DNA of 64,000 nt from an uncultured Candidatus Binatia bacterium (GCA_965261895.1 OZ253480.1:3947665-4011664), one strand, 5' to 3'; shown: positions 21,624-63,225, counted from the stretch's first letter. The notes: generated by a model from the sequence alone, not told the origin. A program made the numbers and translations.

Positions 21624-21633
21624 GAGAACACCC

Positions 21634-24371: not shown

Positions 24372-24403
24372 ACGGTGCGGCTTGCAATAGAAGTCGTCTA
24401 CAC

Positions 24404-35970: not shown

Positions 35971-36065
35971 CAAAAGATCGCCAAATCTCCCCAATATTGG
36001 GGTGGCTAGCCAGCTCGCGACGCGTTTAAACTACCATGGCGCGTGAGCGCCGCCGGGAGGAGACC
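35971..36065 (+). promoter_or_regulatory. Conserved ~100-bp upstream element, copy a (palindrome TCCCCAATATTGGGG + box GCGCGTGAGCGCCGCCGGGAG), upstream of giant adhesin 1
   Basis: It shares GTCAAA..CGCCAAATCTCCCCAATATTGGGGA...(35-37 nt)...TCAGCGCCGCCGGGAG with the copies at 45586, 46595, 52741 and 54131. Confidence 0.6.
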
Positions 36066-36449
36066 CGGCGAGAACCGTTGCGCGGTCTGTTCGACCCCAC
36101 GGGGCATCGGCTTTCATTCGGATTATTGCAGCTACGGGAGGCTAGGGATGACCCTTTTTCGCTTACCTCGGACAACACGTTTTCTGCGCCGGATACCTGT
36201 GTCAAAGGCAACGGATCCAAGCTGGCGGGAGACCGGATCTCATTCGTGAAGCCAAGGCGACCCCAAGATCCTACAGCGTCAGGCGACGGGCGTTGTCGAC
36301 CGCTTGCCAACGTGTCTGTGGGCTCGTCGGATCGCGTTCCAATTTCCTTCCTCCCCAGGCGCCATCCCGTTTTCAGACCAGCGATGCCCTGCCGACGCAT
36401 GTGCATCGTTCTCATCTCTCTTACGCGAATTCACCGGGACCCTTCGACC

Positions 36450-39400
36450 ATGCATCATCTCGTTGTGCCTTGCACCGTACGCTGTCTCGCAATCATGCTG
36501 TTCTCCGCGTTCGTCGCGTTGCTTGCCACGCCCGCCTACGCGCAGACCGAGGTTCCGAGCAACTGGCCCCTGAAACCTCCGGGACTGAATGTGGGCGACG
36601 AATTTCGCCTGGTGTTCATGGGGAAAGTTTCGCGGAATGCAGATTCGACGGACGTCGCGGTCTATGACGCGCATGTGCAAGGCCGTATCGCCGGCATCGG
36701 CCACGCGGAAATCAAGGCGTATTCGAGCCATTTCAAGGTTCTGGGTTCCACCTCCACGGTGAATGCGCGAATGCACACCGGAACGACCGGAACCGGCGGC
36801 GTGCCGATCTATTGGCTGAACGGCCCGAAAGTCGCGGACAACTACGCCGACTTCTACGACGGCACTTGGGACGACAAGGACGGTGCGACACTGGAGGATG
36901 GCACGTCGCTTAGCTCCGGTCGCAAGGACCAATTCATTTGCACCGGCACCAACGATGACGGGACGACGGCGTCACAGCCTCTCGGCGCAGCCACATGTGC
37001 CGGAACGAAGATCAATATCTCGGGGAACACCCTGAGCGGGGCGACGGGTGCGAGCAGCGCAGCATCGCGCTACCTGGTGCTCTCCGGCGTCTTCCGGGTC
37101 GGCAACTTCACCGCCACCATCCCGACGGTCGAGAGCGTGCGCGTCACCTCGGATCCCGGCAGCGACGGCGAATATGTCAAGGACGACGCGATCAAGGTCA
37201 CGGTGACGTTTTCGGAAGCGGTCGCCGTTACTGGAACGCCCAAAATCAAACTGAGACTCTCCGAAGAGGCGACGCCGAAGAGACCCGGTTACGTCGCTGC
37301 CGAAAGCACGGCGACGGCGCTGGTGTTCTCCTACACGGTGAAGGCGACCGACTATTCCCATGACGGGGTCATCATCCCCAGGAACGGGATCGTCCTCAGC
37401 GGCGGCGCGACGATCAAGAACCAGGCCGGCACCGTGGACGCGGACCTGGATCACGCCAAGAAAGATTCGCTGAGCGCCCACAAGGTGCACGTCCGGCCAT
37501 TGGTCACCGGCGTAACCGTGGCTTCGACGCCGGCGGCCAACGGCATCTACCGGACCGGCGAGACCATCCAGATCGACCTGACCTTCGACAAGGCGGTGGC
37601 TGTCTTCACCGACTTCGGCACGCCCGAAGTCTGGTTCGTCATGGATGGCTCGAATCCGGCGCGCCGCGAGGCTGCCTACACGACGACCGTCGGAGACCAT
37701 GTCGTGCGCTTCGATTATGCGGTCCAGGCCGCGGACCTGGACGACGACGGCATATTGTTCATGAACAACGCGATTGTCTGGAACGACGGGGCGATTATCA
37801 GAAAGGCGCATGGTGACGTTGACGACCTCGATGAATTGAAGACCCTGAGGGTGGACGAAAACGGTGGGAGTACCTCCACGTACCCCCAGACCGGCCACAG
37901 GGTGAATGCGGCGGTGTCGACGGACGCGACGCTGAGCGACCTGGATCTGGAGGACAGCAACGGCGCCGCGATCGAGCTGACCCCGTCGACGTTCGCGTCG
38001 ACGACGACGTCCTACACGGCGTCGGTGGCCTACGCGGTGGACGAGATCACCATCGTCCCGACGGTGATCGAGATCTATGCGACGGTGGCGTATTTGGACG
38101 CGAGCGACACGGCGCTCACGGACGCGGACGCGAACAAGAACGGCTTCCAGACGCCGCTCGCGGCGGGCGCGAACACGATCAAGGTGAAGGTGACGGCGGA
38201 CGACGACTTCACCACCCTGACCTACACGATCACGGTAACGCGGGGCGCCGCCTCCACCGACGCGACGCTGAGTTCCCTGGCGTTCACGGACGCGGCCAAC
38301 GGCAACACCATTTCTCTGACTCCGGGCGGGAACCGCACCTACACGACGTCTGTGATCAGCAGCGTGGACGAAATCACCGTCCTCCCGACGGTGAACGAGA
38401 GCAACGCGACGGTCGCGTACCTGAACGCGTCGGACACGGCGCTCACGGACGCGGACGTGGCGAAGGACGATTTCCAGGTGGTGCTCGCGGTCGGCGCGAA
38501 CACGATCAAGGTGAAGGTGACGGCCGAGGACGGGGATACCATCGAGACCTACACGGTGGTGGTGACCCGGGCTGCTTTGGTGCCGGGCCAGGTGACGGGG
38601 GTCGAGGTAACGCCGGGCACTGGCCGGTTGAAGGTCGACTGGAACGCCGTGACCAACGCCGACGGCTACAAAGTGCAGTGGAAATCGGGTACCGAGACGT
38701 TCACCAACGCGGCTGCGAACAGCCGGGAGGCGACGGTCACGTCGGGTTCGACGACGAGCCATACGATCACGGGCCTGACCAACGGCACCGCCTACGACGT
38801 ACAGGTGATCGCGACGCGGACCAACGCCGCCGACGAGACGCCCTCGGCGCCGGCATCGGGCACGCCGGGCGCGGCGCCGGGCCAGGTGACGGGGGTCGAG
38901 GTAACGCCGGGCACCGGCCGGTTGAAGGTCGACTGGGACGCCGTGACCAACGCCGATGGTTACAAGGTGCAGTGGAAATCGGGCGCGGAGACCTTCGCCG
39001 ATGCGGCTGCGAACAGCCGGGAGGCGACGGTCACGTCGGGCTCGACGACGCGCCACACGATCACGGGCCTGACCAACGGTACCGCCTATGACGTGCAGGT
39101 CATCGCCACCCGGACCAACGCGGACGACGGGACGCCCTCGGCGCCGGCGACGGACACGCCGTCGCAGACGGTGCGAATCACGGGCGTGGCGTTCACGAAC
39201 GTCCCTTCGAACAACGTCTATAACCTCGGCGACACGATCGAGGTGAGCATCACGTTCAATGCGGCGGTTGAGGTAACCGGAACCCCGAAGGTGCAAATGT
39301 ATTTCGTCGACAAGCATAAATTCTACGAATACGCCAACTACGACGCTGCCTTCAGCACGGATACGGTGCTCGTCTTCAAGCGCCTCGTGACCGGCGACGA

Positions 39401-42400
39401 CGACAACGAGTCGACCGTTCGAGTCATTCCTGACGGTCTCAAATTGAACGGCGGGACAATTCGGATCAAGGGGACCACGGTAAATGCCGACATCGCCCAC
39501 GCCGGCACGCAGACGGACCCGGACATCAACACGCGGTGGCTCGAGGGCATCGCGGTGACCTCGGCACCCGCCGTGCCAGAGACCGTGACCGGGAACCCTG
39601 TCTACGGCCCGGGCGAGAAGATTCAATTCAAGGTGACTTTCAAGAATGCAGTCGATGTCGATCAGACGGACGGCGCACTGAAGCTGAAATTTCGCTCGGG
39701 CAGCGCCACGGCAACCTACGCGGCGGACTATGAAAGCGGCACCGGCACGAAAGATCTGGTGTTCGCCTGGACCGTGCCGGCCAACATGCCGGATGACGGC
39801 GCCGGCCTCGTTGTTCCGACGAACGTTCACGGGCACGGGCACGGGTTCGATACCAGTCATGGACTGGTGCTGAACGGCGGGACGATCAAGAGCAGCGGCG
39901 GGATCGCGGTGAATATCCGCCACGGGCAGCACGATACGGATTCGCGGGTGGATACGACCGCGCCGGTTCTTGCGGCCGGCGCCGACGGTGCGACGGTGGA
40001 CGGCACGGCGCTTGTGCTCACATTCCAGAACCCGGATGACGGCAATTCGGCGGACCACCTCGACGAGGCCTCGGCGCCGGCGGACTTTGCCGTCACGGTC
40101 GCGGGATCGGCGCGGACCGTGTCGAGCGTGAATGTGAACGGCGCCACCGTCACCCTCACCCTCGCTTCGCCCGCGGGCCATGCCCAGGCGGTCACGCTGG
40201 GCTACACGCCGGGAACGAGCAGGATTCGGGACCGGTGGGGCAACGAGGCGGTCCAGATCGCCGGCCGGTCGGTGCGCAACGACAGCCCCGAGCCGTCGCT
40301 GTCGATCGAACCGGTGACGGTGCACGAAAGCGACGGCACGGCCACCTTCACGGTGACGCTGAGCGTCCCGAGCGCAGAGCAGGTTACGGTCGACTACGCG
40401 ACCGGGGACGGCACTGCGACGGCGGGGGCGGATTACACAGCGGCGAACGGCACCCTCACCTTTGCGCCGGGAGAAACGACCAAGCCCATCAGCGTCACGA
40501 TCGCCGATGACACTGTCGACGAGGATGGCGAGACCTTTTCGGTAACGCTCAGCAACGCGGTGAACGCGTCCATCGGTCAAGCGGCGGCGGCGGGAACCAT
40601 CACGGACGATGACCAGACGGCGTTATTTCTGTCGGGCCAAGTGACGGAGTTGATGGCCACGGCGACGGTGAACAAGGTCACGCTGACCTGGACGGCACCG
40701 TCCGGCACGATCCTCGGCTACCGGATCGAGGCGTCCTACGACGGCGGCACGGTCTGGGCCGAGGTAGAAGACAATACGAACGGGACCAGCACCGCCTACG
40801 CGCACGGTTCGGGGCTGATGGCCGGCGAGACCCGCGACTACCGGGTATCGGCAATCACCGGTGATGGCGCCGGCCCGCCGTCCGTCGCGGCCGCAGCCAA
40901 CGCTTCGGACACCGTCAACGGGCTGACGGCCACCGGTGTGTCTATCCAGGACACGCCGGACGGGATGGCAACGATCGATCTCTGTTGGAAACCGTCCGGT
41001 GTAGCGGTGAGCGAATTGAAGGATTTCGCGATCAGGGAGAGAAACGTCCATCCCTCATATCCCGCGGAGTGGAGCGATCAACACTGGTCTCCGTCGGGCA
41101 AGTCGAGGGCTGCCGATTGCGAGGCGGGAAGCATCGGCTTCCGGGTCTCCGGGAGGATTGCCCCGAATATCCGCTACGCCTTTCAGATCCGGGCCAGATA
41201 CGGGATGCGCTGGGCGCTCTCGAACGACGCCGACGCGGTATCGGTCGATGCGGCCCTGGATCTTCGCGCCGACGTGTTGACGGGCAATTCCAGCCTGTCG
41301 GGGGATACCGACGTGCCCGCCACCGTTTGCCCCGCCTATGACGACCCGGCGACGCCTGAGGCCGACGCCGGTTCATTCATCGTCAATATCGGGTTTTCCA
41401 CGCGGCCCGCGGTCATGCTCAATTACGAAGCGGTGACCGGATTCGTTCTGGACAATGACGTGACGCTCGAGAACGCCACCGCGGAGCTCATCGACCGGCC
41501 GTATGGCGCGCAGCTGGGCTATCGGGTCCGGATCACCCCTACTACCTGGGGGCAACCCGTGGCGGTGAGCGTGCCGGCGGGCGTCGTGACCCACCCTGCT
41601 TCGTCGGTCAGGAACCAGGCTTCCAACGTGTTCCGCCGCAACACCTCCGCCTCGACCGATTGCGACACGGGCAGCGATATAACGGTCTACCCGCCGGCCG
41701 TTAGGCGCACCGCAATTCTCGACGATGACGACCGCAGCGGCATGTGGTCGACAGGCGAGCGTGTCCGCGCGACGCTGGAATTCACCGAATCGGTGACGGT
41801 GACGACGGACAACGGTATCCCGACCGTTTCCCTGAGCATCGACGGCAAGACGGTGCAAGCCTCCTACGCAGAGGGGACAGGTGGCGACACGCTTGCGTTC
41901 GAACATGTCGTGACGGCCGAGCAGAGCCCGTTCAACAGTGCCAGTCTTGTGGCAAACAGCCTGTCGTTGAACGGCGGCGCGATCGCGAGCCTCGACGGAC
42001 CGGCGGCCACGCTGGCGCATCCGGGGGCTGTGAAACAGAAGAAACTGGGCACCGGGCCGAAGAAACCGGCTACCGAGCCCAAATTGACGGCCAATTGGGT
42101 GAAATTTCCGCCCGGCCATTCTGGAGACGGCAGGAAGTTCACGGTCCGCGTGAAATTCAGCGATCCCGTGACTATCAACGTGAGGTACTTCCGCGACTAC
42201 GCTCTTTCGGTGACCGGCGGTGTTGTCGACAAACTGTGGCGTGTCAAGGGAAGCGACGGCGAACCACGCAAGGACCTGTGGGCGATCAGGGTGATGCCGG
42301 CATCGCAGCAGCCGCTGTCATTGTCACTGGCGGCCATACAGGACTGCAGCCAGCATGGTGCGATCTGCACGGCGGATGGCACGCCGCTCTCCAACGCGGC

Positions 42401-44240
42401 ATCCATTACCGTGCCGGGGCCGAATCACGACCTCACGGTGGCGGACGCCGAGGTCGAGGAAGCCCCGGGCGCCGAGTTGGCGTTTGTCGTGACGCTGAGC
42501 GGGACAGCGCCCTACCGGGTCAAGGTGGATTACAGGACGGCGGACGGCACGGCGACGGCCGGCGAGGACTATACGGCGGTGGAAGGTACGCTCATCTTCG
42601 AGCGCGGCGAGACGTCGAAGACCGTTTCGGTGCTGGTGCTCGACGACGCTCATGACGACGACGGCGAAACCCTGACGCTCTCCTTGAGCAATCCGCTGCG
42701 CGCGATGATCGTCGACGGCGAGGCCGTGGGAACGATCCGCAACAACGATCCGATGCCTCGGGCCTGGCTGGCGCGCTTCGGGCGCACGGTCGCCGACCAG
42801 GTTCTGGCGGCGGTGGAGGGCCGGCTGAAGGCCGCGCGGGTGCCCGGCGTCGAGGCACAGCTTGCCGGGCAGCGGATCGCCGGCCCCGCGGCGCCGGACA
42901 CCGAGAAGGCCCATGAGGCGGAAGCCGAGGCCCGTCTCCTGGCGCTGTCGGACTGGCTGCGTGGCGCTGCCTGCCCCGACGAGTCTGAGCGCCAGGGTGA
43001 ATGCGCATTGGGCGGACAAGCGCGTTTCGACTCGCGGAAGCTGACGGGGCGGGACTTCCTGACGGGCTCTTCCTTCACACTGACGGGCGGAACGCGAGAG
43101 GGCGGTGTCGGTGCGTTGTGGGCCCAGGGAACGGTCGGACGATTCGAAGGGCGCGAGGGCGCCCTCTCTCTGGACGGCGAGGTGTTGAGCGGCATGCTGG
43201 GCGCGGACTGGACGCGCGGGCGTGGGACCGCGGGGTTCGTGCTTGCTCATTCCCGCGGCGACGGCGACTACCGCTCTGAATCGGGCGGGGGCGAGGTTTC
43301 CTCGACGCTGACCGGGATCTATCCTTACGGGCGCTACGCGGTGAACGAGCGCCTGTCCATGTGGGGCATCGTCGGCTACGGCGCTGGCGAGCTTGGGCTC
43401 ACGCCGGAGGGGAGCTCGCGGCTCGAGGCCGATATCGATCTCGCGATGGCGGCCGCGGGCGCCAGGAGTACCGTTCTCGATGGCGGCGACAACGGTCCGA
43501 CGGCGGCGTTGACGGCGGACGCGCTGATCGTGCGCACGAAGGCCGACGGGGCTCCGGGTCCGGCGGCCTCGAAGGCCGAGGTGACGCGTCTGCGTTTGGG
43601 GCTTGAAGGATCGTGGCCGTTTCCGCTGGAGGGCGGGGCACTGGTGACGCCAAGCGTCGAGATCGGGCTGCGCCAGGACGGCGGCGATGCCGAAGCCGGC
43701 TTCGGTGCCGACATCGGCGCCGACATCGGCGCCGGACTCGCTTGGGAGGACCCGCAGCGTGGCCTCAAGGCGGAGGTCCGGGGTCGTGGCTTGCTGACCC
43801 ATGAGGACGCGAATTTCCGGGAGCGCGGCTTCGCGGCCTCGTTCGCCTGGAACCCGACACCGGGCTCCAAGCTAGGCCCGTCCCTCACCCTGCGCCAGAG
43901 CGTGGGCGCTTCAGCGACCGGCGGTATGGACGCACTGCTCTCCCGCGGGACGATGGCGGGCGTCGCTACGAATGACAATCGCGAGAATGTTGCTCGCCGT
44001 CTCGAGGTGAAGCTGGGCTACGGGCTGCCAGTGGCCGGAGACCGGTTCATCGGCACGCCGGAGATCGGGGTCGGGTTCTCCGACACGGGCCGCGAATACA
44101 GCCTGGGCTGGGGCCTCGGACTTGCGCGGCGCGACCGGGGTTCCCTCGATCTCTCGCTTGAAGGGACGCGGCACGAGAGCGCGAACGGTGATCGCGGGCC
44201 GGAACACGGAATCGGTCTCAGGCTAAGGGCGCGCTGGTAA
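36450..44240 (+). CDS. Giant secreted/surface adhesin (~2600 aa): signal peptide, cadherin-like beta-sandwich repeats, FN3, Calx-beta domains, C-terminal autotransporter-like beta-barrel
   Basis: Signal peptide MHHLVVPCTVRCLAIMLFSAFVALLATPAYAQ. Repeats of TDATLS.L...TYTITVTR type (cadherin-like). Two near-identical FN3 units. Calx-beta (VTVDYATGDGTATAGADYTAANGTLTFAPGETTK). A ~480-aa C-terminal domain is shared with the 54588-59642 paralogue and ends ...LRLRARW. Confidence 0.7.
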   Translation: MHHLVVPCTVRCLAIMLFSAFVALLATPAYAQTEVPSNWPLKPPGLNVGDEFRLVFMGKVSRNADSTDVAVYDAHVQGRIAGIGHAEIKAYSSHFKVLGSTSTVNARMHTGTTGTGGVPIYWLNGPKVADNYADFYDGTWDDKDGATLEDGTSLSSGRKDQFICTGTNDDGTTASQPLGAATCAGTKINISGNTLSGATGASSAASRYLVLSGVFRVGNFTATIPTVESVRVTSDPGSDGEYVKDDAIKVTVTFSEAVAVTGTPKIKLRLSEEATPKRPGYVAAESTATALVFSYTVKATDYSHDGVIIPRNGIVLSGGATIKNQAGTVDADLDHAKKDSLSAHKVHVRPLVTGVTVASTPAANGIYRTGETIQIDLTFDKAVAVFTDFGTPEVWFVMDGSNPARREAAYTTTVGDHVVRFDYAVQAADLDDDGILFMNNAIVWNDGAIIRKAHGDVDDLDELKTLRVDENGGSTSTYPQTGHRVNAAVSTDATLSDLDLEDSNGAAIELTPSTFASTTTSYTASVAYAVDEITIVPTVIEIYATVAYLDASDTALTDADANKNGFQTPLAAGANTIKVKVTADDDFTTLTYTITVTRGAASTDATLSSLAFTDAANGNTISLTPGGNRTYTTSVISSVDEITVLPTVNESNATVAYLNASDTALTDADVAKDDFQVVLAVGANTIKVKVTAEDGDTIETYTVVVTRAALVPGQVTGVEVTPGTGRLKVDWNAVTNADGYKVQWKSGTETFTNAAANSREATVTSGSTTSHTITGLTNGTAYDVQVIATRTNAADETPSAPASGTPGAAPGQVTGVEVTPGTGRLKVDWDAVTNADGYKVQWKSGAETFADAAANSREATVTSGSTTRHTITGLTNGTAYDVQVIATRTNADDGTPSAPATDTPSQTVRITGVAFTNVPSNNVYNLGDTIEVSITFNAAVEVTGTPKVQMYFVDKHKFYEYANYDAAFSTDTVLVFKRLVTGDDDNESTVRVIPDGLKLNGGTIRIKGTTVNADIAHAGTQTDPDINTRWLEGIAVTSAPAVPETVTGNPVYGPGEKIQFKVTFKNAVDVDQTDGALKLKFRSGSATATYAADYESGTGTKDLVFAWTVPANMPDDGAGLVVPTNVHGHGHGFDTSHGLVLNGGTIKSSGGIAVNIRHGQHDTDSRVDTTAPVLAAGADGATVDGTALVLTFQNPDDGNSADHLDEASAPADFAVTVAGSARTVSSVNVNGATVTLTLASPAGHAQAVTLGYTPGTSRIRDRWGNEAVQIAGRSVRNDSPEPSLSIEPVTVHESDGTATFTVTLSVPSAEQVTVDYATGDGTATAGADYTAANGTLTFAPGETTKPISVTIADDTVDEDGETFSVTLSNAVNASIGQAAAAGTITDDDQTALFLSGQVTELMATATVNKVTLTWTAPSGTILGYRIEASYDGGTVWAEVEDNTNGTSTAYAHGSGLMAGETRDYRVSAITGDGAGPPSVAAAANASDTVNGLTATGVSIQDTPDGMATIDLCWKPSGVAVSELKDFAIRERNVHPSYPAEWSDQHWSPSGKSRAADCEAGSIGFRVSGRIAPNIRYAFQIRARYGMRWALSNDADAVSVDAALDLRADVLTGNSSLSGDTDVPATVCPAYDDPATPEADAGSFIVNIGFSTRPAVMLNYEAVTGFVLDNDVTLENATAELIDRPYGAQLGYRVRITPTTWGQPVAVSVPAGVVTHPASSVRNQASNVFRRNTSASTDCDTGSDITVYPPAVRRTAILDDDDRSGMWSTGERVRATLEFTESVTVTTDNGIPTVSLSIDGKTVQASYAEGTGGDTLAFEHVVTAEQSPFNSASLVANSLSLNGGAIASLDGPAATLAHPGAVKQKKLGTGPKKPATEPKLTANWVKFPPGHSGDGRKFTVRVKFSDPVTINVRYFRDYALSVTGGVVDKLWRVKGSDGEPRKDLWAIRVMPASQQPLSLSLAAIQDCSQHGAICTADGTPLSNAASITVPGPNHDLTVADAEVEEAPGAELAFVVTLSGTAPYRVKVDYRTADGTATAGEDYTAVEGTLIFERGETSKTVSVLVLDDAHDDDGETLTLSLSNPLRAMIVDGEAVGTIRNNDPMPRAWLARFGRTVADQVLAAVEGRLKAARVPGVEAQLAGQRIAGPAAPDTEKAHEAEAEARLLALSDWLRGAACPDESERQGECALGGQARFDSRKLTGRDFLTGSSFTLTGGTREGGVGALWAQGTVGRFEGREGALSLDGEVLSGMLGADWTRGRGTAGFVLAHSRGDGDYRSESGGGEVSSTLTGIYPYGRYAVNERLSMWGIVGYGAGELGLTPEGSSRLEADIDLAMAAAGARSTVLDGGDNGPTAALTADALIVRTKADGAPGPAASKAEVTRLRLGLEGSWPFPLEGGALVTPSVEIGLRQDGGDAEAGFGADIGADIGAGLAWEDPQRGLKAEVRGRGLLTHEDANFRERGFAASFAWNPTPGSKLGPSLTLRQSVGASATGGMDALLSRGTMAGVATNDNRENVARRLEVKLGYGLPVAGDRFIGTPEIGVGFSDTGREYSLGWGLGLARRDRGSLDLSLEGTRHESANGDRGPEHGIGLRLRARW
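38585..39177 (+). repeat. Two near-identical tandem ~297-bp units (FN3 domains) inside adhesin 1
   Basis: GQVTGVEVTPGTGRLKVDW(N/D)AVTNADGYKVQWKSG(T/A)ETF...GLTNGTAYDVQVIATRTNA is repeated in direct succession. Confidence 0.7.
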
Positions 44241-44296
44241 CCGCATGTCGCCGGCCGTCTTTTGCTGACCAGGAGGGGTTCGGAAACCATTCGAGT

Positions 44297-45580: not shown

Positions 45581-45585
45581 GATAC

Positions 45586-45700
45586 TGTCAAAAAACCGCC
45601 AGATTTCCCCAATGTTGGGGACGCGCTCTACGCGTAACTCGCATAAACTTCCATTCATCGCGCATCAGCGCCGCCGGGAGCAGGCTTTGACGTCTGTTCC
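45586..45700 (+). promoter_or_regulatory. Conserved upstream element, copy b
   Basis: GTCAAAAAACCGCCAGATTTCCCCAATGTTGGGGACGCGC...CGCGCATCAGCGCCGCCGGGAGCAGGC. Confidence 0.6.
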
Positions 45701-45774
45701 GTAACGAAGTGAGCAACGAGATGCGAGAAACATCGGCCGGCCTGCGGGCCTTTTGAAAAAGGGAGGGTCGAACA

Positions 45775-46302
45775 ATGAGGAGCGCCTTAACGAGATGGGC
45801 TTTCGCTGCAGCCTTCGGTCTCATCGTGAGCGCCGTTGGAATTTCGATCACGACCGAACAAGCCTGGGCCGACTCGTGCTCGGGGACGACTATCGGTCAC
45901 GGGAGCGCCGACTGCCTGACTGTGGTCTTCCAAAGGGGCAGGCAGGGTGTGGCGCTGACCAATGAGTGTTCGGGCCTGGGTGTCGTCACGGCGGAACTCA
46001 AGGTCATCAACTATGGCTCCGAGGGTACAGTCACCAGCCTTCAGGCACTGAGCAGTTCCGAAACTCTAGTAGAAATAATCGCGAATGACGAGGACGCGCG
46101 CTATACGAACGCACGCTGCTGCACGACCTCCGGTATTTGCGACAACACCGACTGCGACACGACCAACGGCGTGATTGACGATGATAGCCACAAGACGCAT
46201 TGCCGCCATATCGATGACACGACCGGCGCGGTAATCAGGGCGGGCACCGAGATAACGGACGGGGTGGTGACCTACACACCGCCATCTAACACCGGGTTCT
46301 AA
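45775..46302 (+). CDS. Small Cys-rich secreted protein (signal peptide), paralogue 1
   Basis: 175 aa. Signal peptide MRSALTRWAFAAAFGLIVSAVGISITTEQAWA. Ten Cys. RBS GGGAGGG. Confidence 0.6.
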   Translation: MRSALTRWAFAAAFGLIVSAVGISITTEQAWADSCSGTTIGHGSADCLTVVFQRGRQGVALTNECSGLGVVTAELKVINYGSEGTVTSLQALSSSETLVEIIANDEDARYTNARCCTTSGICDNTDCDTTNGVIDDDSHKTHCRHIDDTTGAVIRAGTEITDGVVTYTPPSNTGF

Positions 46303-46594
46303 TCCGCAGGCGAATGGAAGCCATCGGCAAAGCATTGCGGCTGTTCAGCGTGTGAACGGCGGCGCAGAGGAGCCGCGGCAATTGACGTCATGGAGCGCCT
46401 CCTCTCGGGCGTGACCCAGGGCGGGATTTGTATGGTCCGGTTCCGTACGGCGATACGTTGGGCGTCGGCCAGTTCTTGGTCATCACGCCTGACGCCTCGC
46501 TCTCAAGGTCACCCGCGCCGAGCAACTGATCGAGCGGATGGAATCTCAACCGGCGCGGCCCTCGTCTGCCCTGCATGCAGTCCCTGAGACACGG

Positions 46595-46700
46595 TCAAAG
46601 AAAAACGCCAGATCTCCCCAATGTTGGGGACGCGCTCTACGCGCGACTCGCCTAATCTATCAACCATCGCGCATCAGCGTCGCCGGGAGCAGGCTTTGAC
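46595..46700 (+). promoter_or_regulatory. Conserved upstream element, copy c
   Basis: GTCAAAGAAAAACGCCAGATCTCCCCAATGTTGGGGACGCGC...CGCGCATCAGCGTCGCCGGGAGCAGGC. Confidence 0.6.
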
Positions 46701-46784
46701 GTCTGTTCCGTAACGAAGCGCGCAACGGGTATGCGAGGAACATCGGCCGGCCTGCGGGCCTTTGGAAAAACGGAGGGTCGAACA

Positions 46785-47318
46785 ATGAAGAGCGCGTTAA
46801 CGAGATGGGCTTTCGGTGCAGCCTTCGGTTTCATCGTGAGCGCCGTTGGAATTTCGATTACGACCGAACAAGCCTGGGCCGACTCGTGCACGGGGACGAC
46901 TATCCGTCATGGGAGCGCCGACTGCCTGACCGCGGCCTTCTCAAACAACAGGCAGACTTTGTCGCTGACGAGTGAATGTTCGGGCCTGGGTGTCGTCACA
47001 GCCGAAGTCAAAGTAATCGACCTTGGCACCGAGGGACCAGTCATCTATCTTTGGACGCTGAACAACTCCACGCCTTTCGTAACCCATATCTCGAATAATA
47101 GCGACGCGACCTATACGAACGCACGCTGCTGCCCGACCTCCGGCATCTGTGACATCACGGACTGCGACACGACCAACGGCGTGATTAACGATTCGAGCCA
47201 CAAGACGCATTGCAGCTATATCGACAATACGACCGGTGTAATCACGTCAGGTAACGAGATAACGAACGGACAGGTGATCCATACACCGCCCACACCGCCA
47301 TCTGACACCGGGTCCTAA
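46785..47318 (+). CDS. Small Cys-rich secreted protein, paralogue 2 (tandem duplicate)
   Basis: 177 aa, ~65% identical to paralogue 1 with the same signal peptide and Cys spacing. The 3' flank is also duplicated (46303-46420 vs 47319-47430). Confidence 0.6.
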   Translation: MKSALTRWAFGAAFGFIVSAVGISITTEQAWADSCTGTTIRHGSADCLTAAFSNNRQTLSLTSECSGLGVVTAEVKVIDLGTEGPVIYLWTLNNSTPFVTHISNNSDATYTNARCCPTSGICDITDCDTTNGVINDSSHKTHCSYIDNTTGVITSGNEITNGQVIHTPPTPPSDTGS

Positions 47319-47433
47319 TCCGCAGGCGAATGGAAGCCATCGATAAAGCATTGCGGCTGTTTGGCGTGCGAGAGGGACGCCGGCAATTGACGCCACGGAG
47401 CGCTCCCTCTCGGGTGTGACCTAGAGGCGGAAT

Positions 47434-48930
47434 ATGCATGATCCGGAGTGCCGTGCGGAGATCCGGTCGGCGTCGGCCGGTGCATGTCCAAGTGGCCGCG
47501 AGGCGGTGCGGCGGGGGTTGTGGCGCGTCGTCCTCATCCCCTTGCTGCTTGCGATGCCGCTGCTCCTGGCGCCTTGCCCGTCGACGTTCGGGCAGGCAAG
47601 GGACGCCACCGGGGACCAGCACCTGGTGTTGACGGTGGATGCTGCGATCCGGCTGGCGCTACGGAACAACCGAGGCCTGATCGACGCCCGGCTCGCCCGA
47701 ACGTTGCAGGAGTTCGCGCTCGACGTGGCCGGGGACCGCTACCGGCCCACGGTGACGATCGGACCGTCCACGCAGGCGCAAAAGGCGCAGGACTGGAAGG
47801 CGGACGTCGACGCCGAGACCGGGCTCAGGATTCGCACCGGCGGCCGGATCACGTTGCGATGGTCGAAACCCATCGCAGGGCAGGACGACACTTCGGGCAC
47901 CGTCACCCTGGGCTTTTCACAGCCGTTGCTGAAGGGCTTCGGGGCTTCGGTGGATACGGCGCCGGTCCGGTCGGCTCGGCTGACCGACGAGGTCAACATG
48001 CTCGCGTTCCGCGAGGCGATCGCCGGTGTGGTGACCTCGACGATCCGCGCTTGGCGGGACCTCGTCCGGGCTCGGCGGCAGCTCGATATAGGCGAGTCCT
48101 CGCTGGAGCGGGCGCGTAAGCAACTCGAGATCAACCGGACGCTGATCGAGGCGGGCCAGATGGCGGCGCGGGAGATTCTGCAGAGCGAGGCCAACGTCGC
48201 CGACCGGGAGCTTACCCTGGTTCAGTCGCGCAACCGCGTGACCGTAGCCAATTTCCAATTGATCGACATTCTGGACGTCGACAGCGCCACGGAGGTCCGT
48301 CCGCTGGCGATGCCGGTCGCCCGGCAGCCGGATCTTTCGCTGGAAGAGGCCATCGCCGTGGCTCTGCGCCACGCGCCCGCCCATGCGCTGGCTCTGCTCG
48401 ACGTGGAGATCGCCGCGATCGATCTGGAGGTGGCGGAGAACAAGACGCTCTGGGACCTCACCCTGGATGCCGAGGCGTCGCGCGGCACCGGCGGGGGCGG
48501 TGAGGCGACCGACTATGCGGCGGGCCTGCGGCTGACCATTCCGCTGTGGGACCGCTTGCCCGAGCTCGGGCTCATGAGCGCCAGAGCCGGTGTCCAGCGG
48601 GCGGAGCGCGGCCTTGCCGAGGTCCGTCAGGCGACGGACATCGCGGTGCGCCGGGCGGTCCACGACGTGGAGGTGGGTTTGCGACGGATCGCGCTCGCCC
48701 GTGACGCGCGCGCGCTTGCCGAAGAGAAGCTCGAGATCGAGCGGAGCAAGCTGCAGCAGGGTCTGTCGTCCACCTTCCAGCTCAGCCGCTTCGAAGAGGA
48801 TCTGGTGCGCGCACAGAACGCCGAGGTGGATGCGCTCATCGACCATGAGAACGCGTTGACGACACTCGACCGGACGCTCGGCACGACGCTGGAGACCTGG
48901 GATATCGGTGTCGAAGAGGTCGGGCGATGA
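47434..48930 (+). CDS. TolC-family outer membrane efflux/secretion protein
   Basis: 498 aa with an N-terminal hydrophobic signal. OMF repeat helices LALRNNRGLIDARLARTLQEF and LE(I/V)NR. The true start may be internal. Confidence 0.7.
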   Translation: MHDPECRAEIRSASAGACPSGREAVRRGLWRVVLIPLLLAMPLLLAPCPSTFGQARDATGDQHLVLTVDAAIRLALRNNRGLIDARLARTLQEFALDVAGDRYRPTVTIGPSTQAQKAQDWKADVDAETGLRIRTGGRITLRWSKPIAGQDDTSGTVTLGFSQPLLKGFGASVDTAPVRSARLTDEVNMLAFREAIAGVVTSTIRAWRDLVRARRQLDIGESSLERARKQLEINRTLIEAGQMAAREILQSEANVADRELTLVQSRNRVTVANFQLIDILDVDSATEVRPLAMPVARQPDLSLEEAIAVALRHAPAHALALLDVEIAAIDLEVAENKTLWDLTLDAEASRGTGGGGEATDYAAGLRLTIPLWDRLPELGLMSARAGVQRAERGLAEVRQATDIAVRRAVHDVEVGLRRIALARDARALAEEKLEIERSKLQQGLSSTFQLSRFEEDLVRAQNAEVDALIDHENALTTLDRTLGTTLETWDIGVEEVGR

Positions 48931-50696
48931 CGGAAGAGCGCGCGGACATCCACGGGCGCGTACTCGACCATCTGCTGGACGGGGTGATGGTGGTCGAGCG
49001 GGGCGGCACGATCACGGTGTTCAACCCGGCGGCGGCGCGCATCCTCGGTGTCTCGCCCGAGGAGGTGGCAGGCAGGACCTTCACCGAGCTCTTCATCGCG
49101 CGAGAGGGGTTCGAGGAGTTCTCGGACCTCCTCCTGGACGCCGTCCAGGGCGAGGGCGAGGGCGGCCGGCAGGTGGTGACGCTGCATACCGGCGATGCGG
49201 CGCGGACGCTTTCGGTGGCGATCTCCTACATCGGATCGAGCGGGGACGACGCCGGCGAGAGGGTGGCGCTGATCGCCGTGTTCAGCGACATCACCGAGTT
49301 GCGCGAGCTGCGCGAGACCGAGCTTCGCATGGCGAAGGCGGTGGAGGCGCAGCATGCAGAGCTTCAAACCGCGTACCGGCAGATCGAGCAGCGGAACGAT
49401 TCGCTGGCCGCGATGCTGAAGAAGGTCCAGGTGGCGCGGGTGCTGGCGACGGTGGTGGTGATCGGGGTTTTCCTGGGGGCAGGCGTCTATGTCTGGCGGC
49501 CCCTCGACCTGTTTGGCCCCGTCTTTGGGCCCTCGGTGGTGTCTCACGCCGATGCCGCGAAGGGGTTGCGGACGATCGTGGTGGAGCCGCGGCAGACGCG
49601 GGAGACGATTGCGCTGGTGGGCAAGATCACGCCGTGGCGGACGGTGACGGTGACCAGCCCCATCGAGAGCCGCGTCTCGGCAGTGCACTTCCAGTATGGC
49701 CAGAAGGTGGGAAAGGGCGATCTTCTGGTGGAATTGGATACCTCCGAGTTGGTGCGGAAGCACCGTCGGGCGCAGGTGGCGTATATCAATGCGTTGGAGG
49801 CTTTCGAGACCGTCAGGGACTGGAAGAACGGCCCCGAAATGATAGTCGCGCGGCGGGCGTTCGCGCGGGCTCGGATTGCACTTGAGAGCCAGGAGACCCG
49901 GCTGAAGCGGACCACTTTCCTGCTGGAGCAGGGCCTCGTTCCCGCATCCCAGCATGAGGAAGCGGAGCGTCAGCACCGGCGCCAGCTTCTGGATTTCGAG
50001 GCCGCCCGCCAGGACCTTGAAGCAGCCCGGGCCAGGGGTGGCGAGGAGGCGGTGGACAAGGCGGCGCTGGAGTTGAGCAGTGCCAAGGAAGAGATGCAGG
50101 AGCTTGCGAAGAGCGCGGGCCAGGGCCGTGTTCTCGCGCCGGTGTCGGGGGTGGTGCTGGCGTCCTCCGGGGCCGGCGCAAAGGTTCTCGCGCCGGGACG
50201 GTCAGTGGAAAAGGGCGAGGCGATACTGAAGATTGGGGACTTCAGCCGCATTGCCGCCACCGCGATGGTCGACGAGGTCGACGTGGTGCGGCTCGCGGTC
50301 GGCCAGACGGTGTCGGTGACCGGCAACGCGTTCCGCGATCTGCGGATGCGGGGGACCGTGACCCACGTTTCGTCGCAGCCCCTCCCGAGGGCGCGGGGCG
50401 CGGCCCGGTTCGAGGTCAAAGTGACGCTGGACCCGCTGGACGCGCATCAGAAAAGGCGGTTGCGGACGGGAATGTCGTGCGTGCTGGAGATCGTCATCTA
50501 CAACAAGGACGCGGCGCTGATGGTCCCCATCGAAGCGGTGGAGCGAAGCGGCCGGTCTCACCGTTTGCGTGTGATCCATGGCGAGACCCGCATCGTTCAG
50601 CACCGCGAGGTGGAGGTCGGCCCCACCACCCTGGATTCGGTCGAGATCACGTCCGGGCTGAAGCCGGGTGACGAGATCGTCGTCCCGACGGAATGA
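48927..50696 (+). CDS. Membrane fusion protein (HlyD/MacA-like periplasmic adaptor) with an N-terminal cytoplasmic PAS domain
   Basis: Residues 1-120 are PAS-like (LLDGVMVVERGGTITVFNPAAARILGVSPEEVAGRTFTELF). A TM helix follows (VARVLATVVVIGVFLGAGVYVW), then biotinyl-lipoyl, beta-barrel and MP domains of an MFP. Confidence 0.7.
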   Translation: MTEERADIHGRVLDHLLDGVMVVERGGTITVFNPAAARILGVSPEEVAGRTFTELFIAREGFEEFSDLLLDAVQGEGEGGRQVVTLHTGDAARTLSVAISYIGSSGDDAGERVALIAVFSDITELRELRETELRMAKAVEAQHAELQTAYRQIEQRNDSLAAMLKKVQVARVLATVVVIGVFLGAGVYVWRPLDLFGPVFGPSVVSHADAAKGLRTIVVEPRQTRETIALVGKITPWRTVTVTSPIESRVSAVHFQYGQKVGKGDLLVELDTSELVRKHRRAQVAYINALEAFETVRDWKNGPEMIVARRAFARARIALESQETRLKRTTFLLEQGLVPASQHEEAERQHRRQLLDFEAARQDLEAARARGGEEAVDKAALELSSAKEEMQELAKSAGQGRVLAPVSGVVLASSGAGAKVLAPGRSVEKGEAILKIGDFSRIAATAMVDEVDVVRLAVGQTVSVTGNAFRDLRMRGTVTHVSSQPLPRARGAARFEVKVTLDPLDAHQKRRLRTGMSCVLEIVIYNKDAALMVPIEAVERSGRSHRLRVIHGETRIVQHREVEVGPTTLDSVEITSGLKPGDEIVVPTE

Positions 50697-50708
50697 GCGG
50701 CCGGGGTC

Positions 50709-51389
<681 letters not shown>

Positions 51390-51403
51390 CGCGGGCAGGT
51401 GCG

Positions 51404-52618
51404 ATGAGGGGCCTACGCCCGATTCTGGCAGCCAACCTTCGCGAGGCTGTACGCAGTCTCCACGGGGCTCGGTTGCGGACAGTGCTGGGGCTGATCGGCG
51501 TCATGCTGGGCATCTCGTCGGTGATCGCCATGATCTCGTTGGGGGAGATCGCGAAGGCCGAGTCGCGAAAACGGTTCGAGGCCCTCGGCACCGACATTCT
51601 TGCCATCACCAAGTCCGACACCTCGGCCGCCGCCCGTAGGCGGGGAGCGGTCATTGGCCTCGAGGATGCGCTTGCGCTGGCAGACGCGGTCCCGACCGTG
51701 TCGGAAACCGGGCCCCAGACCGAGGCGCAGGGTTCTTTTGCGTATGGCGGGAAATCCATGGGTCGGGGATTGACGCAGGGCGTATCGGCCGCGTTCGCGC
51801 GCGTGAACAGGTTACAGGTCGCCGAAGGGCGGTTCCTGTCCGACATGGACGCGGAACGCTATTTTGCGGTGGTGGGCGCCGACCTGGCCTCGGCCATGCG
51901 CCGCGGCGGGGCGCGAGAAGTCGTAGGCGAGGTCCTGGAGATCGACGAGCGGCTGTTCACCGTCGTGGGCGTGCTGGCGGATACGCCCGAGACCTACGCG
52001 TTGCCCTTCCAGTTGCAAGCGAACCATTCGGTGTTCGTGCCGATTACCACCGTGCGGCGCATCGACCCGAGCACCGAGATTGGACTGATCGTCGCACGCG
52101 CGACAGCCGGTGTTCACCACGCGGATGCGGCACGCGATGTCCAAGCCTATTTCAGCGGTCGCACAAGGGGCCTCGCTCTCAGGGTCACCAGCGCCGAGCA
52201 ACTGATCGAGCGGATGGAGTCTCAACTGGGACTGATGACGCTTCTTCTGGGTGCCGTCGGCAGTATCAGCCTTATCGTCGGCGGCATCGGAGTGATGAAC
52301 ATCATGCTGATTTCGGTGGCCGAGCGGCGGCGCGAGATCGGCATCCGCCGGGCGCTCGGCGCGACGCGCGGGGACATCCAAGGTCAGTTCTTGATCGAGG
52401 CTGTGATCCTGACGCTCTGTGGGGGGCTGGCGGGCATCGTGGTCGGCTGCGGGGCCACCTACGGTGTCTGCCGGTTCACCGGGTGGGAGTTCTTTCTATT
52501 GCCGAGTTCTATCGCAATAGGTGTCGCCGTCTCGTCCGTGGTCGGGGTCTTCTTTGGCTTCCAGCCCGCCTATCAAGCGTCCCGTCTAGACCCCATCGTC
52601 GCCCTGCAAGGGCAATAG
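51404..52618 (+). CDS. ABC transporter permease (MacB/FtsX-type, with periplasmic domain)
   Basis: 404 aa. An N-terminal TM is followed by a ~200-aa periplasmic domain, then three C-terminal TMs characteristic of FtsX-like permeases. Confidence 0.8.
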   Translation: MRGLRPILAANLREAVRSLHGARLRTVLGLIGVMLGISSVIAMISLGEIAKAESRKRFEALGTDILAITKSDTSAAARRRGAVIGLEDALALADAVPTVSETGPQTEAQGSFAYGGKSMGRGLTQGVSAAFARVNRLQVAEGRFLSDMDAERYFAVVGADLASAMRRGGAREVVGEVLEIDERLFTVVGVLADTPETYALPFQLQANHSVFVPITTVRRIDPSTEIGLIVARATAGVHHADAARDVQAYFSGRTRGLALRVTSAEQLIERMESQLGLMTLLLGAVGSISLIVGGIGVMNIMLISVAERRREIGIRRALGATRGDIQGQFLIEAVILTLCGGLAGIVVGCGATYGVCRFTGWEFFLLPSSIAIGVAVSSVVGVFFGFQPAYQASRLDPIVALQGQ

Positions 52619-52740
52619 CGTGGATGCGGCGGACGATCCGGAGCAAAGTCTCCATCGTTCAGTGTCGATCATGCGATTCGCGATGGACCCTCACACCCAG
52701 TTCACGCATCGTCGATGGTACATGATATCGTTTGAGACCT

Positions 52741-52830
52741 GTCAAACCGTCAAATCTCCCCAATATTGGGGAGGCATGGAAGCGCCTGAGCGTTTACACT
52801 TCAAACATGCGTCAGCGCCGCCGGGAGTGG
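52741..52830 (+). promoter_or_regulatory. Conserved upstream element, copy d (perfect 18-bp palindrome CTCCCCAATATTGGGGAG at 52756-52773) upstream of the LuxR-family regulator
   Basis: GTCAAACCGTCAAATCTCCCCAATATTGGGGAGGC...GCGTCAGCGCCGCCGGGAG. Confidence 0.6.
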
Positions 52831-52948
52831 GTGCCGGCGACATCGGTGTGTAAGGTTGCAGCGGAGAATATGCGGAACAAAGAAGGGTTCTTGCCACCCA
52901 GCGGCTGGGAATTGCGCCGGCCGAGCGTCCGCAAACGAAGGCGCGGTC

Positions 52949-54100
52949 ATGAGTGAACGGGAGGCGTTCGACCGCATTCTGGCTTCGTTGCACGAGGTGG
53001 CGCTCGACCCTGGCCACTGGTCGACCGCCACCGCGCTGATCGACCAAGCCCTCCGCACGCACGGCAGCAGCATGGTGTTCGGCGACGGGCACTCCGAAGA
53101 GGACATCCGAATCTACTTTACGTGGGCCTTTTTCCGTGGGCAACGGCACCGGGAATTGGAGCGCGAGTACTACGAGGTCTACTACCCCCTGGACGAACGG
53201 GCCCCCCGCATACGGTATGCCCCCGACAGCCGGTTGTACCACGTTACCGACCTCTACACCGAGAAGGAGCTGAAGACCTCCACGACATACAACGAGCTGT
53301 TGGCCCGCGCCCACGCCCAGAACGGCATCCATGTGCGCCTGGACGGGCCCAATGGCTCGCGCATCGTCTGGGTCGTCAACGACCCGGTCGACGGGGACGG
53401 CTGGTCGTCCGCCCAGCTCGGCTCGATCCGGCGTCTCCTGCCCCATATCCGTCAGACCGTGCGCGTCCAGCAGGCGCTGGCCGGGACCGGTGCTCTGCGC
53501 GCGTCCCTCGCGAAGCTGCTTGACGCCACCGGGTTGGGCATCGTCCATCTCGACGGGCGTGGGCGGATCGTGGCGGCGAACGACCGCGCCCGGGATTTGC
53601 TGCGGACCGGCGACGGTCTGTTCGACGAGGACGGTTTCCTCTACGCCCGCACGCGGGAGGACAATGCCGAACTCCAAGAACTGTTGACGCGAGCGCTGCC
53701 GCCGTTCGGGGCACAGGGCGCGGGCGGCTCGACGATGGTGAGGCGCTCGTCCGGCCGGTCGCCGCTGGTGCTGCACGTCAACCCGGTGGGCCGGCAGGAG
53801 ACGGTCTGGCCGGTCTGGCCGGTCGCGGCGCTCGTGCTGGTCGTCGACCCGGCAAACCAAACCCGCATCGATCCGGCCGTGGCTGCGGCGGCTCTCGGCC
53901 TCACGGGGATGGAGAGCCGGGTGGCGGTGCTGTTGGCCGACGGCATGAACGTCCGCGAGGTCGCCGCGGCAACGGGCCGCGGGGAAAGCACGATCCGCTC
54001 GCATGTGAAGCACATGTTCGACAAGCACGGTCTGTCGCGGCAGGCGGAGCTGGTGCGGCTTGTGCAGTCGTTGGCCGGCGCTCCGGAGTCCCGACGCTAA
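52949..54100 (+). CDS. LuxR/GerE-family transcriptional regulator (C-terminal HTH; ~300-aa N-terminal domain uncharacterised)
   Basis: C-terminal GerE HTH (LTGMESRVAVLLADGMNVREVAAATGRGESTIRSHVKHMFDKHGLSRQAELV). The N-terminal start is MSEREAFDRIL. Confidence 0.7.
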   Translation: MSEREAFDRILASLHEVALDPGHWSTATALIDQALRTHGSSMVFGDGHSEEDIRIYFTWAFFRGQRHRELEREYYEVYYPLDERAPRIRYAPDSRLYHVTDLYTEKELKTSTTYNELLARAHAQNGIHVRLDGPNGSRIVWVVNDPVDGDGWSSAQLGSIRRLLPHIRQTVRVQQALAGTGALRASLAKLLDATGLGIVHLDGRGRIVAANDRARDLLRTGDGLFDEDGFLYARTREDNAELQELLTRALPPFGAQGAGGSTMVRRSSGRSPLVLHVNPVGRQETVWPVWPVAALVLVVDPANQTRIDPAVAAAALGLTGMESRVAVLLADGMNVREVAAATGRGESTIRSHVKHMFDKHGLSRQAELVRLVQSLAGAPESRR

Positions 54101-54130
54101 AGCCGGAAGCAGCCGCTGGCCGGCGCTGAC

Positions 54131-54262
54131 CTCGTCTGCCTTGCCTTCATTCCTGAGACACAGTCAAAAACCGCCAAATCTCCCCAATCTCGGGGACGCG
54201 CGCCACGCGCGACTCGCGTAATCTTTCATCCATCGCGCATCAGCGCCGCCCGGAGCAGACCC
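54131..54262 (+). promoter_or_regulatory. Conserved upstream element, copy e (imperfect palindrome TCCCCAATCTCGGGGA) upstream of giant adhesin 2
   Basis: CAGTCAAAAACCGCCAAATCTCCCCAATCTCGGGGACGCGC...CGCGCATCAGCGCCGCCCGGAGCAGACCCGGCGAG. This is also similar to copy a. Confidence 0.6.
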
Positions 54263-54362
54263 GGCGAGGTCTGTGAGGGAGGGTGTGTGGCGATGGGATC
54301 GGGTCGTGACTGAAGAAGGTTTTCTGCACCGGATAGCGGGTCCACCGAATTGGAAAACATCG

Positions 54363-60811: not shown

Positions 60812-61217
60812 TGAGGTGGTCCCGAGAAATCGGACAGGATGCTAAGGTGTATTCCGTCTAGAAGGGGAGGGATGCGCGATGACGACGAGACGGCGATTCA
60901 GCGTGGAATTCAGTATGGGGACGAGGCGAGTTTCTCAAACTGCAATGCAGATTAAGTCGGCAGTATGGTGATCCATCCCGGGAATCCCGACGAAGTGTAC
61001 CCGCTGGTTGGGCAAGGCGACCGAGGCACGTCTGAGGACTGAGAAACGGACGAGCACGCGCTGATCGACGCAGTTGTTGTGCTCAAACCGCTTACGATTT
61101 GCTTACGGAGCTAGACGGTTACTGAAAGACTGCAAGAAAAAATTTAGAGAAGTCACAAGGTTGAGTGTATCGTGATAGACGAGATCCCATTTGTGTCAAG
61201 CACCAGGCGCGGCCCGG

Positions 61218-63172: not shown

Positions 63173-63225
63173 AGCGTAGCGAAGCGAAGTCGAAGGACGC
63201 CATCCACGGCTCCAAGCTTCCCCGG

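Follow-up and report, generated by a model that had tools for sequence, protein, structure and literature searches.

Five copies of a palindromic promoter module and an adjacent LuxR-type regulator: a predicted autoregulated regulon of adhesins, cysteine-rich secreted proteins, and an exporter

The window analyzed here is a 64,000-nucleotide stretch of DNA from an uncultured Candidatus Binatia bacterium (GCA_965261895.1, OZ253480.1:3947665-4011664). It carries an island of genes encoding two giant adhesins, a cytochrome P450, two small secreted cysteine-rich (Cys-rich) proteins, a tripartite MacB-type exporter, and a 383-aa one-component regulator of the LuxR/GerE family (Table 1). Five copies of a module, which combines a palindrome with a second conserved segment called box 2, are found in this island. 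Every module is intergenic and directed at a gene, and from the sequence alone we consider it quite likely that the modules are the promoters of an autoregulated activator regulon, run by the adjacent 383-aa regulator. The genes had been assigned in a first-pass annotation, and these assignments hold: the giant proteins contain Calx-beta, fn3, cadherin-like, and SRCR domains, the Cys-rich proteins of 175 and 177 aa have signal peptides, and the regulator has a LuxR/GerE-type helix-turn-helix (HTH) domain.

Searching the window for the palindrome TCCCCAATATTGGGGA with up to 3 mismatches gave exactly 5 matches, all on the plus strand (35988, 45606, 46615, 52757, and 54181), against a mean of 0.18 in dinucleotide shuffles, none of which (0 of 100) reached 5. 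The five copies that the annotation had located thus stand as described. Box 2 (CAGCGCCGCCGGGAG, up to 2 mismatches) occurs once in each module, at 36045, 45666, 46675, 52813, and 54241; 7 matches were found in total where 0.64 were expected, and the remaining 2 are unrelated sites. An nhmmer profile built from 42 modules recovered the same five and no others in the 64 kb, with E-values from 1e-28 to 2e-19. The copies can be aligned across approximately 100-130 nt, and all five lie within 18.3 kb, on the strand of the next gene. The gap between palindrome and box 2 is 36-38 nt, close to the 35-37 nt given earlier. The copy upstream of the regulator gene is indeed a perfect 18-bp palindrome, CTCCCCAATATTGGGGAG. 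Overlooked in the earlier description were three elements: a TAnnnT -10 box, situated between palindrome and box 2, and two conserved upstream boxes, TTCCTGAGA and ACCTCGTCTG.

Table 1. Modules and genes of the island, in coordinates of the window, domains of the regulator, and fragments of regulator genes in related loci
Feature	Position	Strand	Remarks
Module 1	35971..36065	+	Upstream of giant adhesin 1
Module 1, palindrome	35988-36003	+	TCCCCAATATTGGGGT
Module 1, predicted -10 box	36027-36032	+	TAAACT
Module 1, box 2	36045-36059	+	
Giant adhesin 1	36036..44240	+	Calx-beta, fn3, cadherin-like, SWM repeat; domain search
Cytochrome P450	44297..45580	+	No module of its own; 57 nt after adhesin 1
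Module 2	45574..45680	+	Upstream of Cys-rich gene 1
Module 2, upstream box	45574-45582	+	GGCCTGAGA
Module 2, palindrome	45606-45621	+	
Module 2, predicted -10 box	45644-45649	+	TAAACT
Module 2, box 2	45659-45680	+	
Small secreted Cys-rich protein 1	45775..46302	+	175 aa; Sec signal peptide
Module 3	46559..46689	+	Upstream of Cys-rich gene 2
Module 3, upstream box	46559-46568	+	CCCTCGTCTG
Module 3, upstream box	46581-46589	+	TCCCTGAGA
Module 3, palindrome	46615-46630	+	
Module 3, predicted -10 box	46653-46658	+	TAATCT
Module 3, box 2	46668-46689	+	
Small secreted Cys-rich protein 2	46785..47318	+	177 aa; Sec signal peptide; paralogue of protein 1
Tripartite MacB-type exporter	47434..52618	+	No module of its own; 115 nt after preceding gene
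TolC-like outer-membrane efflux protein (OEP)	47434-48930	+	
PAS-fused membrane-fusion protein (MFP)	48927-50696	+	
MacB/LolD-type ATP-binding cassette (ABC) ATPase	50709-51389	+	
MacB_PCD/FtsX permease	51404-52618	+	
Module 4	52741..52827	+	Predicted promoter of the regulator gene itself
Module 4, palindrome	52756-52773	+	
Module 4, predicted -10 box	52795-52800	+	TACACT
Module 4, box 2	52813-52827	+	
Proposed operator-binding regulator	52949..54100	+	383 aa; LuxR/GerE-family one-component; homology, profile, model
Regulator, N-terminal region			No detectable family; domain searches and model
Regulator, PAS-like region	residues ~195-300		Domain searches and model
Regulator, HTH domain	residues ~318-376		Domain searches and model
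Module 5	54129..54255	+	Upstream of giant adhesin 2
Module 5, upstream box	54129-54138	+	ACCTCGTCTG
Module 5, upstream box	54150-54158	+	TTCCTGAGA
Module 5, palindrome	54181-54196	+	TCCCCAATCTCGGGGA
Module 5, predicted -10 box	54219-54224	+	TAATCT
Module 5, box 2	54234-54255	+	
Giant adhesin 2	54306..59642	+	SRCR, fn3, Calx-beta; start GTG 54306 or ATG 54363
Regulator 3' fragments, locus L008	2218-2804, 7748-7999		
Regulator 3' fragment, locus L016	1056-1690		
Regulator 3' fragment, locus L099	6041-6609		
Regulator 3' fragment, locus L001	9551-9679		
Regulator 3' fragment, locus L103	14955-15122		

Homologues of the regulator and the Cys-rich proteins, along with pattern scans, led to related loci and brought the collection to 43 distinct palindromic sites. 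A TAnnnT hexamer starts 23-24 nt past the 14-bp palindrome core in 40 of the 43, and at 39 of these 40 sites it occurs at this offset in a single orientation only. With TAnnnT expected at a background frequency of 0.0027 per position, or about 1% per site over four slots, the binomial tail is 2e-75, for sites that are related by descent. T1, A2, and T6 are the best-conserved positions of the sigma-70 -10 box. When the hexamer is set at -12 to -7, the center of the dyad falls at -42.5 or -43.5. No TTGACA-like -35 hexamer at a usable spacing (16-18 nt) was found in the modules; TTGGGG, in the right half-site, stands 23-24 nt from the -10 box. Neither did a sigma-70 consensus scan detect a full promoter in the modules, which fits dependence on an activator. 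At lux-box promoters, which undergo class II activation, the operator is centered near -42.5 and replaces the -35 element. The same features, a dyad at about -42.5, a -10 box, and no -35 hexamer, are found together in the modules, and their predicted geometry is that of a class II activator site at a sigma-70 promoter, similar to the lux box.

Directly upstream of the palindrome lies an A-rich tract, GTCAAAAACCGCCAAATC, which is kept in the closer relatives and may be a candidate UP element. The dyad and the -10 box are separated by a GC-rich spacer of 22-23 bp, in which a number of candidate elements were considered and dismissed. A terminator-like match inside the spacer of module 5 is a GC-palindrome artefact, at chance frequency; extracytoplasmic function- or sigma-54-type promoters, checked by eye, have unfit spacings; and the inverted repeats in the spacer (CGCGCG..CGCGCG) are uninformative, because CG-rich runs are self-complementary. 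Further upstream, TTCCTGAGA lies 31-34 nt and ACCTCGTCTG 52-58 nt from the palindrome, and at sites in three related loci (L018, L020, and L023), sequences with 1-2 mismatches to TTCCTGAGA keep that distance. In module 2, the P450 stop codon falls inside the upstream box. These boxes may be functional, or may be hitch-hiking with the rest of the module.

Palindrome and regulator travel together. A syntenic locus that is 95-98% identical to the island (L006) contains the same modules, four of them inside its 21 kb. The palindrome stands upstream of the regulator gene in homologues at 95, 83, 80, 76, 67, and 61% identity, and such autoregulatory copies are the rule across loci. In the loci of the homologues at 83-61% identity (L001-5, L007, L098-105, L018, L023, and L020), a second copy usually lies downstream of the regulator gene. 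Across these homologues, the flanks and box 2 diverge while the palindrome stays, and relatives at 76% identity or less have no box 2 in their promoters. Divergent pairs of palindrome and -10 box occur in L018, L020, and L102, which rules out that the palindrome is a terminator. More distant relatives carry variants of the site. L036 has the dyad-symmetric variants TCCCCCATCTGGGGGA and TCCCCCATTTGGGGGA (at approximately 1901 and 3381), and L021, with a regulator at 49% identity, has TCCCCGTAAAATTACGGGGA and, 19 nt beyond it, TATACT, both before and after the gene (approximately 205-225 and 1735-1755). In L029/L030, CCTCCCCAACATTGGGGAGG at 6249-6262 separates the gene for a 135-aa HTH-only protein from that for an FG-GAP/RTX secreted protein. 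Both half-sites change symmetrically in these relatives, as predicted for the operator of a dimer.

The gene types downstream of the modules recur as well: the regulator, giant adhesins, and 1-3 Cys-rich genes followed by the OEP/PAS-MFP/ABC/MacB operon. The exporter gene order after a module is the same in L098, L103, and L106-L108. Relaxed scans of the fetched loci gave 2-5 modules per island, always near a regulator gene. Insertion probably explains the integrase or transposase gene that lies downstream of a module in L100 and L106. Members of the regulon lying apart from the regulator gene were sought via Cys-rich homologues in three loci with long flanks (L106-L108; the flanks of L109 and L110 are short), and none was found; the clusters of L106-L108 again hold the regulator gene. 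In L021, the TCCCC/GGGGA arms of the site stand 4 bp further apart, and the whole promoter, with a leader exceeding 150 nt, is present twice, once on either side of the gene.

The regulator itself matched the Pfam family GerE (PF00196) with an E-value of 1e-4 and 22.3 bits, and PF00196 is assigned to many of its close homologues in precomputed annotations. A profile of 18 homologues searched against PDB matched through residues ~317-372 only, to the HTH domains of NarL, EL222, VraR, and RcsB (E 5e-4 to 1e-2), which places the protein among the HTH factors of the LuxR/FixJ/GerE type. The match to PAS_8 was weak (E 4e-4, below the cut-off). An AlphaFold2 model built from the 18-sequence alignment has a PAS-like pattern of beta-strands and helices at residues 195-300 (predicted local distance difference test score, pLDDT, 54-81) and helices at residues 320-376 (pLDDT 71-86). 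Foldseek matches of this model in PDB were led by VqmA and EL222, with a probability of 1.0 and a TM-score of only 0.2-0.35. Both are one-component regulators that combine PAS and LuxR-type HTH domains, and VqmA, from Vibrio cholerae and phage VP882, is the quorum-sensing receptor for 3,5-dimethylpyrazin-2-ol (DPO). No match to the autoinducer-binding domain PF03472 was found in a Pfam search of the regulator at E <= 0.01, nor any N-acyl-homoserine lactone receptor family in NCBIfam. At E <= 1e-30, the family comprises 413 clusters at 50% identity; it is large, uncharacterized, and known almost only from soil long-read metagenome-assembled genomes (MAGs). A tblastn search against plasmid records, from cultured bacteria, gave only relatives of approximately 25% identity.

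Together, these features suggest how the regulon may work. Each module would be an activator-dependent sigma-70-type promoter, in which a 16-bp dyad (TCCCCAAT|ATTGGGGA), approximately 42.5 bp upstream of the predicted start, replaces the -35 hexamer. The regulator would bind this dyad as a dimer and recruit RNA polymerase, and by activating its own gene would establish positive feedback. It would further activate both giant adhesin genes and both genes for the Sec-exported Cys-rich proteins. The P450 and pump genes have no module of their own and follow the preceding genes after 57 and 115 nt, respectively, so that read-through is the simplest explanation: the P450 gene is probably co-transcribed with adhesin 1, and the OEP/PAS-MFP/MacB exporter is probably driven by read-through from module 3. 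The exporter could plausibly expel the Cys-rich proteins from the periplasm. The first-pass annotation had suggested a LuxR/GerE-type dimer that binds the palindrome and regulates its own gene, and this finds support in silico in the fixed offset of the -10 box (40 of 43 sites) and in the linkage of palindrome and regulator down to 61% identity.

Several observations weigh against this model. The predicted transcription start is placed by the -10 box, and binding is deduced from the co-occurrence of palindrome and regulator gene. As many modules are recent duplicates, their conservation partly reflects ancestry, and the ESTIRxHxK helix motif is shared by many other HTH proteins that lack such a palindrome in their vicinity. 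The GerE score falls just under the Pfam cut-off of 23.5 bits. The overall quality of the AlphaFold model is poor, with a mean pLDDT of 49 and residues 1-194 below 50, so that the fold matches rest on the C-terminal half of the protein. The boxes TTCCTGAGA and ACCTCGTCTG and the GC-rich spacer could be sites of another factor. Such extra factors, along with the evidence for binding being linkage, would suit a scheme in which promoter and operator are real, while the palindrome is bound by another protein or the regulator acts as a repressor. So would the finding of two regulator paralogues with the same palindrome in one 7.4-Mb genome, from which it follows that specificity is not one-to-one. 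We nevertheless consider this scheme improbable, as the palindrome tracks the regulator family at 61-95% identity and changes symmetrically in distant relatives, and as the lack of a -35 hexamer at a usable spacing favors activation, as at lux-box and PimM sites. The modules have also clearly been copied, some related loci carry 3'-end fragments of the regulator gene, and the islands contain integrases and insertion sequence (IS) elements, features that might be expected of a recombination site or of a selfish or structural dispersed repeat without a regulatory role, such as a repetitive extragenic palindromic (REP) sequence, a REP doublet forming a hairpin (REPIN), or an element resembling a miniature inverted-repeat transposable element (MITE). 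This reading is hardly credible, and is largely refuted by the distribution and build of the modules. A strict scan for the pattern of palindrome plus box 2 over 185,579 genomes (596 Gb) returned 11 stretches, of which about five are genuine, all in alphaproteobacterial MAGs; one was found on a complete 5.03-Mb chromosome of the clade. Hundreds of dispersed copies, which the first-pass annotation had named as the mark of a repeat, are thus not seen, and the five copies in the window are confined to 18.3 kb, on the coding strand of the next gene; at nearly all collected sites, moreover, the -10 box keeps a fixed offset and a single orientation. Terminal inverted repeats and target-site duplications are lacking, and a blastn search with module 5 gave no match in plasmid records.

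The role of box 2 bears on a further alternative, namely that the palindrome, box 2, or both act at the RNA level, as terminator, processing-site, or riboregulator hairpins in longer transcripts. Given the predicted start, box 2 would lie at approximately +8 to +30, and hence in the leader. Pairing is possible there (CGCCGGG/CCCGGCG, or alternatively GCAGACC/GGUCUGU), box 2 forms the 5' arm of a GC-rich hairpin in several copies, and in L008 and L101 the same box 2 pairs with a different partner of 12 nt. The 150-nt leader of the regulator gene is moreover conserved down to 76% protein identity. We still regard action at the RNA level as very improbable. The palindrome would fold into a 7-bp stem with a 2-nt loop and lacks a U-tract, and it also occurs between divergent genes. 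The stability of the leaders is not significantly different from that of shuffled sequences (fold z-scores among the five leaders of -1.5 to -2.0, with one at +0.15). RNAalifold found no consensus structure for 16 non-regulator leaders; for 12 regulator leaders it gave a weak long-range pairing between box 2 and the sequence before the start codon (-3.7 kcal/mol), with little covariation, which was rejected as evidence. Stem and loop of box 2 are both conserved, and two copies have uncompensated changes in the stem. No Rfam 15 family matched the window at gathering thresholds, and E-value searches with leaders 1 and 5 gave chance-level matches only (E 5-9). A small open reading frame (ORF) in box 2 was rejected as well, since an ATG is present there in copy 1 only. 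An RNA structure formed by box 2 is thus weakly indicated, and we conclude that box 2 is probably a clade-specific conserved segment of the 5' leader, which may serve mRNA stability or translation control, may be a second DNA site, or may be inherited sequence.

How the modules may have spread is suggested by the related loci. In tblastn searches, truncated or frameshifted C-terminal fragments of regulator genes were found immediately upstream of modules in L008, L016, L099, L001, and L103, while upstream of the modules in the window no such fragment exceeded the tblastn threshold. That the fragments abut the modules indicates that a unit of regulator 3' end and module was copied in front of other genes, and the modules are homologous cassettes spread by duplication. 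The islands often lie beside integrases, IS elements, or conjugation genes. Putative mobile promoters, as described by Matus-Garcia et al. (2012, PMC3488235), are highly similar promoter segments that precede non-homologous genes within a genome. Modules 1-5 precede four unrelated gene types, and resemble these mobile promoters in fronting adhesins, Cys-rich proteins, and the regulator. In contrast to them, propagation is local to one island, the trans-acting factor is encoded alongside, and some related loci have dragged a 3' fragment of the regulator gene along.

A number of observations concern the individual genes of the island. Where adhesin 1 begins is uncertain, as its first in-frame ATG, at 36036, falls within module 1; ATG 36384 is a plausible start. 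ATG 36148 has a good Shine-Dalgarno sequence, but opens a frame other than that of adhesin 1 and stops after 33 codons; this ORF and the N-terminus of adhesin 2 have an FL(H/R)RI motif in common, and a frameshift is possible. Adhesin 2 contains an in-frame TAA (54531-54533) where the L006 orthologue has TAC (Tyr). This codon, which may mark a pseudogene, a sequencing error, or a switch, cuts the protein just past the signal peptide; the long ORF is open again only from GTG 54588. The P450 gene is consistently syntenic with the regulator gene and often directly adjacent to it (in the window, L098, L099, L105, L107, and L108), and its product could make or modify the ligand of the regulator. Both Cys-rich proteins contain approximately 10 cysteines, and no family in Pfam or NCBIfam matched them. 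They belong to an orphan family of 46 clusters at 90% identity, all from ENA assemblies, whose genes occur in 1-3 tandem copies, always ahead of the pump operon. In the MFP, the PAS domain at the N-terminus is cytoplasmic, and a coiled coil, a single transmembrane helix, and a periplasmic adaptor domain follow. This unusual fusion of sensor and adaptor is kept across islands (the window, L006, L098, L103, and L106-L108).

Outside the island, a profile search found no modules in the 35 kb upstream, which contain a sigma-54 activator, a type I restriction-modification system, and unrelated genes. In the region 17760-29916, genes for the sigma-54 activator, HsdR/HsdM/HsdS, a methylase/specificity/AAA fusion of 1308 aa, and an AAA_16 protein form what resembles a defence island adjoining the adhesin island. 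Flanked by a luciferase-like monooxygenase ORF (61191-62645) on one side and a minus-strand ORF (63226-63948) on the other is a tandem array of eight 70-bp units (62611-63173, 97% identity, with degenerate copies to approximately 62471-63310), which had no Rfam match at gathering thresholds. In addition, a 300-bp direct repeat with 81% identity is present at 2358-2657 and 16500-16799, 14 kb apart.

The regulatory mechanism proposed here is conventional; PAS-LuxR or VqmA-like regulators with a palindromic operator at the -35 position are a known type of system. The sites of lux-box promoters controlled by LuxR or TraR are likewise dyads of 16-20 bp near -42.5 with the -10 box retained and with positive autoregulation, which in our case is predicted; unlike at these promoters, the regulator has no PF03472 match and no luxI-type synthase gene is found nearby. 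The site bound by the Streptomyces PAS-LuxR regulators PimM, PteF, AmphRIV, NysRIV, and CfaR is a 16-bp palindrome-like sequence, CTVGGGAWWTCCCBAG, which lies in the -35 region of several promoters per gene cluster (PMC9774167). These proteins combine a PAS sensor with a C-terminal LuxR-type HTH, as the regulator may also do, and its proposed 16-bp site, with arms of G and C runs and an A/T center, recurs at several promoters. However, it is approximately 190 aa longer, owing to the extra N-terminal region, and the similarity is limited to the HTH; the arms of the dyad have the polarity CCCC..GGGG, whereas theirs is GGG..CCC; its predicted regulon has adhesin, secreted-protein, and exporter genes where theirs has polyketide genes; and the regulator appears to be autoregulated, in an uncultured host. 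VqmA binds a palindrome of a G-run and a C-run, AGGGGGGATTTCCCCCCT, and VqmA-Phage activates its own gene (PMC8284805). Its layout of PAS and LuxR-type HTH domains may be that of the regulator as well, and it gave the best fold-search matches to our low-confidence model, but identity is only about 15-19%, and operator sequence, regulon, and size differ. No papers on the palindrome sequence, or on combinations of LuxR, Calx-beta, and adhesin genes, were found in the searchable literature.

A more far-reaching reading, which we hold to be doubtful, is that the island is a self-contained signaling unit, in which a member of a VqmA-like receptor family senses a molecule made or modified by the P450 and drives surface remodeling through a portable cassette of promoter and leader, with the leader and the TTCCTGAGA box as a second layer of control. 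If so, the remodeling would involve the giant adhesins, the secreted Cys-rich proteins, and the PAS-gated MacB exporter, and the second layer would be a leader RNA element or the site of a co-regulator, rather than hitch-hiking sequence.

The prediction offers a concrete pair of operator and regulator for an uncharacterized family of LuxR-type proteins of approximately 380 aa, and describes a compact regulon, borne on an island, that would link giant adhesins and a P450 to secreted Cys-rich proteins of an orphan family and to a MacB-type exporter whose adaptor is fused to PAS. With one cassette copied ahead of unrelated genes, beside its own regulator, the island is also a clean natural case of promoter propagation. 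The regulator and its operator might form an orthogonal pair for synthetic biology, and the palindrome, the spacing of the -10 box, and the operator variants could seed the prediction of further regulons in uncultured alphaproteobacteria.

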